From Octopus vulgaris (taxonomy: Eukaryota): a stretch of 64,000 nucleotides of DNA. Below the pieces are notes generated by a model. That model made no database searches, was not told where the DNA came from, and saw only the letters and a program-made list of their open reading frames with translations. Shown here piece by piece: positions 26,164 through 50,134 of the stretch (positions are counted from its first letter, which is position 1; each line of letters starts with the position of its first letter). A program made the translations under genes and the position numbers. Where the stretch lies: assembly GCA_951406725.2 (NCBI GenBank), contig OX597824.1, positions 74,338,001-74,402,000 on the forward strand, in the 5' to 3' direction.

Positions 26164-26670
26164 TAGAGTAGTTGTATACTGTCAACTTAATGTGACAGTC
26201 CCATGAAGGGAATCACACATACTGCTATTTAGCCCTAGGAAGCATCAACACTTCCTGTCGGCCATGACACATTTTCTGTGCCCTTATGTTTACAAGGGGG
26301 AGACAAGCATCTCCACCCAGCTAAGCCTGTAACCAGAGAGTAGTTTCTGAGTCTTTGCTCATCATCAGTCTGGAGTAGCATGGCCTGCTAGTTGGAGATG
26401 CCTGTCTGACCTTTGGAAACATATAAGAATTCTGGTGAAATAAATCCACTGATTACAAAAATAGAAATATTACATTTCTAAATATCTCAGAGAGATATAA
26501 GCAGTAGTGGTACGATAGGCGGAGGTGCTTGTCTCCCCCTTGTAAACATAAGGACACAGGAAATGTGTCAAGGCCGACAGGAAGTGTTGATGCTTCCTAG
26601 GGCTAAACAGCAGTGGCGTGATTCCCTTCATGGGACTGTCACATTAAGTTGACAATATACAACTACTCTA
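26164..26670. repeat. long inverted repeat (~150-bp arms), Penelope pLTR-like
   Basis: 26164-26314 is the reverse complement of about 26521-26670; the spacer holds a hammerhead-like motif. Confidence 0.9.
26333..26373 (-). ncRNA. minimal hammerhead-like motif
   Basis: CCAGA CTGATGA TGAG caaaga CTCA GAAA CTAC TC TCTGG; stems I and II are perfect and stem III is mismatched. Confidence 0.6.
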
Positions 26671-27636: not shown

Positions 27637-28072
27637 TATCTTGTAGAAATATGTCATAATCTGACCTGGTACCTGCTGTTTGCTTGTTTACCCTTTTGTT
27701 CTATTATGTACTGACACCCACTTTTTTTATGTCAAAGGCTAATATGTCCCAATACTAGACTATTTTCTTTAGCCAACAGACTGATTACTTATAAGCTTTA
27801 AACTTATTGTTTACAGAATTATCACTTGTCACCACTTCTCCATTTAATGCGCACACACACACATATAGATATAGTTATGTGTATTTTTCCCTTGTTAACA
27901 ATTAACACGGAAAAAATAAATAAATAGTTACCAGGGTAGCAAAATATCACACAAGTAAAAAGGTTGTAACTCCTTGTTTTTAAAGGTAGAAACTTAGGGT
28001 TTACATGAAATTTTTTGTATCATATATAAATAAATAAACGGAGTTAAACACAGGTGTTATTCAAATTTTTTT

Positions 28073-28161
28073 ATTTCCGACACATGTTTCGAAAATATCA
28101 CTGATATTATTTCAAAGGAATAAAATGGTGTAAAACAATGTAATGTTCTCTTCAGGAAAGT
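28073..28161 (-). ncRNA. type I hammerhead ribozyme
   Basis: ACTTTC CTGAAGA GAACAT...ATTTTC GAAAC ATGT GTC GGAAAT; intact core with one mismatch in each of stems I and II. Confidence 0.7.
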
Positions 28162-28404
28162 AAAAAAATGAAACTCGCCAATAAGACATTTTAACAGAAA
28201 ATAATGGATATATATTTTTCCTAGTCTATAAGGTTTTATTTAATATACATATAGTCATATACTTCTCATTTATTTAGTTTTTCTTTACTCTATCCCTCCT
28301 ATAACGTTTTTTTGAAACAATATTAATAGCGTTCAGTTAATCACTTTACATATCCATCATTTTCTGTTAAACTGTCTTATTGACAGTTTAACAGTCATTT
28401 CTTC

Positions 28405-28493
28405 ACTTCCCTGAAGAGAAGATTACATTGTTTGACACCATTTTATTCCTTTGGAATAATATCAGCGATATCTTCGAAACATGTGTCGGAAGT
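28405..28493 (+). ncRNA. type I hammerhead ribozyme
   Basis: ACTTCC CTGAAGA GAAGAT...ATCTTC GAAAC ATGT GTC GGAAGT; perfect 6-bp stems I and II, GUC site, palindromic ACAUGU in stem-loop III. Confidence 0.85.
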
Positions 28494-28527
28494 AATAGTA
28501 TTTGAACTATACCTCCGTTAAACTCCA

Positions 28528-28582
<55 letters not shown>

Positions 28583-44368: not shown

Positions 44369-44473
44369 AAAAGTATGGAGTGCTTCACGAATTTGCATGT
44401 CATCCTTGCGCAGGGGGCCATGCTAATTTCTGTATCATTCCAATCTTAGAATATGTACTGCCAAAGCTAGTAC
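44369..44473 (-). pseudogene. U6: U6 snRNA copy, probably a pseudogene
   Basis: Minus strand GTACTAGCTTTGGCAGTACATATTCTAAGATTGGAATGATACAGAAATTAGCATGGCCCCCTGCGCAAGGATGACATGCAAATTCGTGAAGCACTCCATACTTTT; the ACAGAGA box is damaged. Confidence 0.92.
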
Positions 44474-49074: not shown

Positions 49075-49228
49075 TACACAGAAAAAAACAAGGAGAGAAA
49101 AAAAATGCATGTAGGAGCTAACGATCTATCACGGCGTCCTGACTTCGGACATACAGGGTTGACCAAGTCACCTGTTAGTAAATCAAAAACCTTAATTCCA
49201 AGATTTATCTACATTTAACAAATGAATG

Positions 49229-50008
49229 GGCGAAGTTTCGCATGTCGTAGATCAGATTTCCGTCGATTTCCGTAAAAAACTTTTATTTTTTTACATAAGT
49301 AATGAGAGCGAAAGAGACTAAGAGGAAGCGATTTTACGACGAGAAGGTTTCACTTTGAAGTCGGCCTGTGTGTGTTTGATGGGGTGTGGGAGACAGACAG
49401 TATGTTGTGTAAGTGAAGTGCTTCTGTTAGTGTGTGCGAAGAGACAGAGAGAGTAATGTGTGAAAGAGAGAGATAACTGATTTTTTACTCGGTGTATGTG
49501 TATATGTATGTATGCATGTATGTGTGTGTGTGTGTATGTATCTATGTATGTGTGTGTGTGTAAGTATGTGTGTGTGTATGTATGTATGTATGGCCGATTC
49601 ATCGTAATTTTTTACTCGGTGTATGTGTATATGTATGTCTGCATGTATGTGTGTGTGTGTGTGTATGTATCTATGTGTGTGTGTGTGTGTAAGTATGTGT
49701 GTGTGTGTATGTATGTGTGTGTGTGTGTATGTATGTATGTATGGCCGATTCATAGTAATTTTTTACTCGGTGTATGTGTATATGTATGTCTGTCTCTTCA
49801 CACACACTAACAGAAGCACTTCACTTACACAACATACTGTCTGTCTCCCACACCCCATCAAACACACACAGGCCGACTTCAAAGTGAAACCTTCACGTCG
49901 TAAAATCGCTTCCTCTTAGTCTCTTTCGCTCTCATTACTTATGTAAAAAAATAAAAGTTTTTTACGGAAATCGACGGAAATCTGTGCTACTACAACCGAA
50001 ACTATGCC
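49229..50008. mobile_element. long-TIR non-autonomous DNA transposon with 8-bp TSD (Merlin-like)
   Basis: AATGAATG|GGCGAAGTTTCG ... CGAAACTATGCC|AATGAATG; ~220-bp inverted arms and internal ~130-150-bp tandem units. Confidence 0.85.
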
Positions 50009-50134
50009 AATGAATGAATTTAATCAAACTGAAGTCCTTGAGCAACACATTTTTCCATTTGATTCAATATTGAATTACAGAGAGTATTTATGGAATGTTG
50101 ATATGCTGTCAGGTGACTTTTGGCCAACCCTAAA

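Follow-up and report, generated by a model that had tools for sequence, protein, structure and literature searches.

Two hammerhead motifs with intact cores lie on opposite strands of a single inverted repeat (28022–28544) within the window, the stretch of 64,000 nucleotides from Octopus vulgaris contig OX597824.1 analysed here. The locus is best read, with a probability of about 0.87, as two 5′-truncated end repeats of a Hydra-like Penelope-like element (PLE) placed back to back, likely by one insertion, with hammerheads that were inherited from the element and are predicted not to cut. This reading is carried by family membership, copy number, geometry, junction microhomology, the long and short 3′ ends, and the lack of excess conservation in the core. 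Both the kind of element and its arrangement are known ones, and the motifs are real and, according to the folding models, likely silent at this locus.

The two arms of the repeat (28022–28171 and 28395–28544) comprise 150 nt each and are 87% complementary when aligned ungapped; once gaps are allowed, the repeat reaches inward to approximately 28214/28344. The whole feature spans approximately 27865–28549, which is larger than the inverted repeat first described, and consists of the following parts:

27865–28215, minus strand: 5′-truncated copy assigned to a PLE end repeat, with a long 3′ end (hammerhead plus a tail of ~150 nt); 91% to family locus L006 by BLAST
28208–28549, plus strand: second 5′-truncated copy of the same end repeat, with a short 3′ end that passes into (TA)n; 81–91% to copies L002–L030
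28207–28214, no strand: 5′-to-5′ junction with 8-nt microhomology; overlapping matches at query 186–194
27865–28021, minus strand: one-sided tail of the minus copy, lacking in the plus copy
28073–28161, minus strand: type I hammerhead motif with intact core; predicted cut after 28079
28405–28493, plus strand: type I hammerhead motif; predicted cut after 28487
28364–28394, plus strand: perfect 13-bp hairpin, specific to the locus and in place of family sequence; absent from the other aligned copies
28536–28582, no strand: (TA)n microsatellite at the 3′ end of the plus copy

The minus copy also matches both pLTRs of the full-length locus L051 at 80%. Longer copies continue upstream into an open reading frame (ORF) that ends ~60 nt before the start point of the plus copy (62 nt past the stop codon in L004, L008 and L012). 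The junction between the two copies is TA-rich, and its microhomology matches one copy at 8/8 and the other at 7/8 positions. Both 3′ ends point outward into TA-rich repeats, namely the (TA)n run at 28536–28582, which is likely the insertion target, and a CA/TA-rich run at the opposite outer end (~27850–27870). In full-length copies, the counterpart of the one-sided tail is located after the hammerhead and before the next ORF begins. Indels between the arms arose because the 28364–28394 hairpin replaced family sequence; its likely origin is template switching at a near-palindrome. Variants of this hairpin were seen in contigs labelled as two other organisms. The tail itself contains a small hairpin (27885–27899, minus strand) ~20 nt before the long 3′ end, with an AC-rich run after it, which recalls the start-site stem loop of PMC11167929; within the lineage, its stem showed no extra conservation (73/636, against 423/3590 for the rest of the tail). 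The locus has no coding sequence, and the RT/GIY-YIG ORF is absent from the window.

Both copies carry what a type I hammerhead requires, i.e. a CUGANGA core, GAAA and an NUH triplet. The plus motif is ordered as a 6-bp stem I, CUGAAGA, a long stem II, GAAA, a 2-bp stem III and GUC, with stem III closed by four nucleotides in a self-complementary loop and stem II extended across a 46-nt insert that contains a second helix as well as a terminal hairpin. CTGAAGA and CGAAACATGTGTCGGAA are present in both arms. Stems I and II form 6/6 pairs each in the plus motif and 5/6 each in the minus motif (one mismatch per stem), and the C of the GTC triplet of the plus motif is nucleotide 28487 (segment start 28476). 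An earlier note, made from the letters of the window, had described two core-intact hammerheads on opposite strands of one inverted repeat, with both core segments and most stem pairs retained in either arm, perfect stems I and II in the plus copy, and a cut after 28487, and all of this was confirmed. Its statement that the arms had diverged by substitutions and indels holds as to the divergence, with the indels confined to the inner edge of the repeat rather than found throughout.

The motif is not a chance occurrence, since an exact 23-nt piece of it was found 399 times in the genome compared with 0 times for a reversed control. Its helices covary across lineages (94% of cells paired, three pairs altered on both sides, slid controls at 26–49%), which provides moderate support given that the sample consisted of 17 chosen copies of related sequence. 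Rfam returned no hammerhead match at the locus, neither at the gathering score nor at E ≤ 10; the 46-nt insert in stem II likely lies behind this. A relaxed motif scan of the whole window retrieved two hammerhead motifs, both at this locus, and the rating of the locus as the best ribozyme candidate in the window is accordingly true but trivial.

The family was identified through a DNA search of the octopus's own genome (2.8 Gb), which gave 3106 candidates, 40 of which were scored. An intact ORF of 778 residues was found in L051–L053, three of the 19 long stretches around the longest open frames, and has 11 relatives at 29–39% identity. Their alignment displays YRDD, DKT, RWL and, at the C terminus, a GIY-YIG-like stretch (IYQC..YIG in L051–L053); by inspection, CxxC and CxH flank conserved E and N residues, and there is no CCHH. 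The DKT motif is exact, and RWL stands where the Hydra clade has RWK. Neither four ORF pieces nor the 778-residue ORF had a significant Pfam family, so the RT and GIY-YIG assignment rests on motifs and homologs. In L051, an inverted short-ended copy is followed by a 5′ pLTR, then the ORF and, last, a 3′ pLTR that terminates in (TA)n; the tail of the 5′ pLTR stops ~50 nt short of the first Met of the ORF, the unit from pLTR to pLTR measures 2863 bp (<3 kb), and TA runs are found at the copy ends. The ORF of this locus (L051:3287–5620) contains an extra Lys/Asn-rich stretch after the thumb. The features expected of an EN+ PLE were found, i.e. pLTRs with a hammerhead, partial tandems, an inverted 5′-truncated copy and a one-sided tail. 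It is a sister lineage, ~80% identical in the pLTR, that carries the intact ORFs; the lineage of the window gave broken ORF pieces only. Judged by these sequence features, the family is a C-terminal EN+ PLE of Hydra-like type. It is filed as Hydra-like, and not as a member of Hydra, because the CxCX5C linker, present in 10 of the 11 homologs, is missing from the 778-residue ORF. As the (TA)n ends are kept in the absence of this linker, the published link between CxCX5C and TA targeting may not be strict.

Within the accessible part of PMC8557442, the Hydra clade, e.g. Hydra-1_Obim, shares with the present family a single ORF with RT and C-terminal GIY-YIG, DKT, RW[K/L], CxxC/CxH around E and N, a length below 3 kb, (TA)n targets, a hammerhead in the end repeat and an inverted 5′-truncated copy. 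The tail is longer here, ~150 nt versus 30–40 nt. The family is not Hydra-1_Obim itself, whose protein and hammerhead differ according to the supplement as far as available; three motifs of the window family had no match in that supplement, where wrapped nucleotide lines could hide some. The conserved core, 2-bp palindromic stem III, long stem II and predominance of single truncated copies are also described for metazoan PLE type I hammerheads in the available sections of PMC4209133, from which the present motif differs by its 46-nt stem II insert and by the absence of an Rfam model match. Poseidon of Anolis (PAc; PMC11167929) is likewise similar in its AT-rich targets, in the extension of both strands and in having two start sites, which result in a one-sided tail. 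However, PAc belongs to another PLE clade, and its hammerhead overlaps the ORF start, whereas here it lies ~290 nt upstream of the next ORF. Finally, non-LTR retrozymes, in the part of 10.64898/2026.07.22.740005 that was available, have a type I hammerhead related to that of PLE pLTRs; however, they are same-strand tandem units without an ORF, whereas the window family is linked to an ORF and occurs mostly as single or inverted copies.

The arrangement was compared across 90 loci, which cover 95 of the first 100 listed among the 399 matches and were retrieved with flanks of 1.5 kb (30 loci) or ~2.5 kb (60 loci). At 48 of the 90 loci, a piece of 40 nt or more lay on the opposite strand, with the minus piece leftmost in 48/48. 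Hammerhead cores occurred on both strands at 15/90 loci, one of which (L126) involves a more distant relative and is laid out differently, and two same-strand cores at only 3/90. The back-to-back inverted layout is therefore the norm of the family. As at the window locus, one long and one short 3′ end were found in 36 of 44 other pairs, a set in which L140 is a simple-repeat artefact. Dual motifs 100–700 bp apart on opposite strands are reported for Schistosoma (PMC4209133, accessible part), and an inverted 5′-truncated copy with a one-sided tail is known for PLEs from the available text of PMC8557442 and PMC3846280. PMC11167929 describes nicking and extension of both target strands as well as two start sites. 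The long/short pairs match this one-sided tail, as far as PMC8557442 was accessible, and the two start sites of PMC11167929. In overlapping in sequence and in nearly always having long and short ends and a shared subfamily, the inverted pairs fit priming on both target strands. Of note, a divergent relative family with a CUGAUGA core and another stem II insert was seen as inverted pairs at L026, L070, L114 and L126. It adjoins or sits inside copies of the present family, hinting at families that insert into one another.

Under the back-to-back reading, the endonuclease of the element would nick both strands of a TA-rich target, and reverse transcription would be primed by each nick at either of two start sites located downstream of the hammerhead. 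Use of both sites would produce the long and the short 3′ end, and the two copies would each stop early and then be joined at their 5′ ends. By analogy with published work, the motif would cleave weakly as a same-strand dimer in tandem parent transcripts, perhaps aided by the element's protein.

A transcript of either strand contains one sense motif plus its antisense arm, as had been noted earlier, and self-cleavage was thought to compete with formation of the long hairpin. The folding predictions leave little room for such competition. In the full repeat, the hammerhead fold lies above the ensemble by +97.8 (plus) and +108.6 (minus) kcal/mol. With the antisense arm removed, a penalty persists, of +6.1 to +7.6 kcal/mol for the plus motif and +11.5 to +16.8 kcal/mol for the minus motif. 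All of these values are secondary-structure predictions, and the models take no account of magnesium, protein or tertiary contacts. Stems I and II have a predicted probability of 0.00 in the full repeat on both strands. Because both motifs point outward, read-through RNA of either strand makes the antisense arm before the motif, and when folding was modelled step by step, the core and the 5′ side of stem I were 91% paired to the antisense arm from the start. Among the 65 core-intact arms (of 98), the plus and minus motifs ranked 36th and 61st, respectively, for the hammerhead fold. The letter at 28434, private to the plus copy, was predicted to permit a helix that occludes the cut site, also when the motif stands alone.

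The segment of stem III can pair with a second copy of itself over 6 bp (−6.0 kcal/mol). Such a 2-bp self-complementary stem III is, by analogy with characterized motifs, of the dimer type and would need a partner on the same strand; the opposite-strand copies of the locus therefore provide none. In the accessible parts of PMC4209133 and PMC6765202, metazoan PLE motifs are inactive as monomers and weak as dimers. Self-cleavage at the locus is, on these model-based grounds, unlikely. If transcription started in the spacer, the plus motif with its perfect stems could cut in trans together with a sense copy from elsewhere, and protein help could likewise permit cutting by a spacer-started transcript. 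Contigs from the putative RNA run X1 contained pieces of the family but gave no cover in four bins of unique flank, and are neutral on transcription of the locus.

Conservation of the core was assessed in the 95 arms that cover the motif. In these, 38 of 570 positions of the 5′ core (6.7%) depart from the family majority, versus 8.6% in stem II plus insert, 6.9% upstream and 5.6% downstream; the 3′ core had served to select one arm per locus and is not scorable by comparison with the majority. A full core was retained in 9 of the 21 arms without the exact 23-mer, among them the minus arm of the window. The core has thus decayed as fast as its flanks among copies, and intact cores are not special, contrary to their earlier use as a sign of activity or selection. 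Given that the helices covary across lineages, the motif was likely kept in active elements and decayed neutrally in copies.

These results bear on two alternatives. A selected, functional ribozyme switch regulated by antisense pairing would account for two intact cores and for the perfect plus stems, and the insertion is common to two differently labelled organisms, as contigs X18 and X19 bridge the unique left flank and the tail. However, 36 of the 98 sampled arms are equally intact in core and stems I and II, the core shows no excess conservation, the hairpin is favoured by ~100 kcal/mol and forms first, the private change at 28434 yields a helix that hides the cut site in the isolated plus motif, and single metazoan PLE motifs do not cleave according to the available part of PMC4209133. 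We consider such a switch very improbable. An origin as a non-autonomous retrozyme, or as a foldback or MITE-type DNA element with hammerheads in its terminal repeats, would be compatible with inverted arms and a locus devoid of coding sequence. It is, however, largely refuted and hardly credible at this point: copies vary in their 5′ ends and extend upstream into the PLE ORF, the outer arm ends are unequal, the spacer is family sequence, and the same-strand double cores of a retrozyme, which would occur as tandem units without an ORF, are confined to the three loci mentioned above.

One result counts against a single event for the two copies: the arms at this locus differ at three of four linked sites that mark subfamilies. 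For comparison, 24/24 other pairs in which three or more sites were covered have arms that disagree at no more than one site, which makes the window locus the one discordant pair among 25; three or more sites differ in 48% of draws of random pairs. With a wider set of sites, the minus arm is intermediate, with five of one type and three of the other. The plus and minus arms are 8/284 (2.8%) and 19/304 (6.3%) away from the family majority, respectively. Hyper-editing from A to G was rejected as the source of the arm divergence, as 10 of the 19 minus-arm changes are C>T, which is family-like, and 2 are A>G. Two separate insertions, the later one into an older copy at its TA-rich 5′ edge, would explain the subfamily disagreement, the unequal distances and the TA-rich junction, and PLEs tend to land in or beside existing copies (PMC6765202, available part). 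The differing sites are bunched within 22 nt, which would suit this scenario as well as a gene-conversion patch on one arm. Against two insertions, the geometry is identical to that of the concordant pairs (3′ ends outward, one long and one short, 5′ ends abutting), and concordant pairs also diverge unequally, e.g. L110 with 1 versus 12 changes; we therefore regard this pair of scenarios as rather unlikely. Within the single-insertion reading, the discordance could instead reflect copying from two RNA templates that derive from different source elements, something a dimeric enzyme would permit; we propose this tentatively and with more doubt than confidence. Chance convergence would be a further possible source of the discordance. 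If two templates were indeed used, discordant pairs would be a genomic read-out of template number per PLE insertion; in the literature, as far as searched, we found no test of this number, which is weak evidence of absence.

As a ribozyme candidate, the locus matters little: copies that decay like it number in the hundreds, and no arrangement is commoner in its family. The earlier interpretation was sound on the hammerheads and on the sense and antisense content of transcripts, and overlooked that the motifs come from a retroelement and that stem III is of the dimer type. The inverted pairs and the sister lineage, in turn, bear on how PLEs insert and on whether they need the hammerhead. The sister-lineage pattern has 940 genome matches; among the 100 listed, 59 have CCGA for the CTGA core and 36 form 18 outward-facing pairs within 4 kb. 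L051–L053, which contain the intact ORFs, are of the CCGA type, as are L055, L061 and L163–L190, and the lineage often shows GUA as the cut triplet together with a basal G-U pair in stem II. Median divergence among copies is 4.3% in the sister lineage (22 copies) versus 8.6% in that of the window (30 copies), with an exact seed included in both samples. According to the accessible part of PMC3088659, the U4C change lowers in vitro activity considerably, yet it suffices for a viroid in vivo. The apparent spread of a younger lineage with C at U4 hints, on sequence grounds, that cleavage may be needed only weakly. This would fit the finding that the PAc hammerhead is dispensable, and cleavage not required, for insertion in vitro (PMC11167929).

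Elsewhere in the window, the other long inverted repeats (26164–26670 and 49213–50024) contain no hammerhead motif; they are 94–98% and 93% complementary, respectively, and are possibly foldback or MITE-type elements. A U6 snRNA match on the minus strand (44369–44473, 84 bits) has a 3-nt deletion in the ACAGAGA region and is likely a pseudogene.
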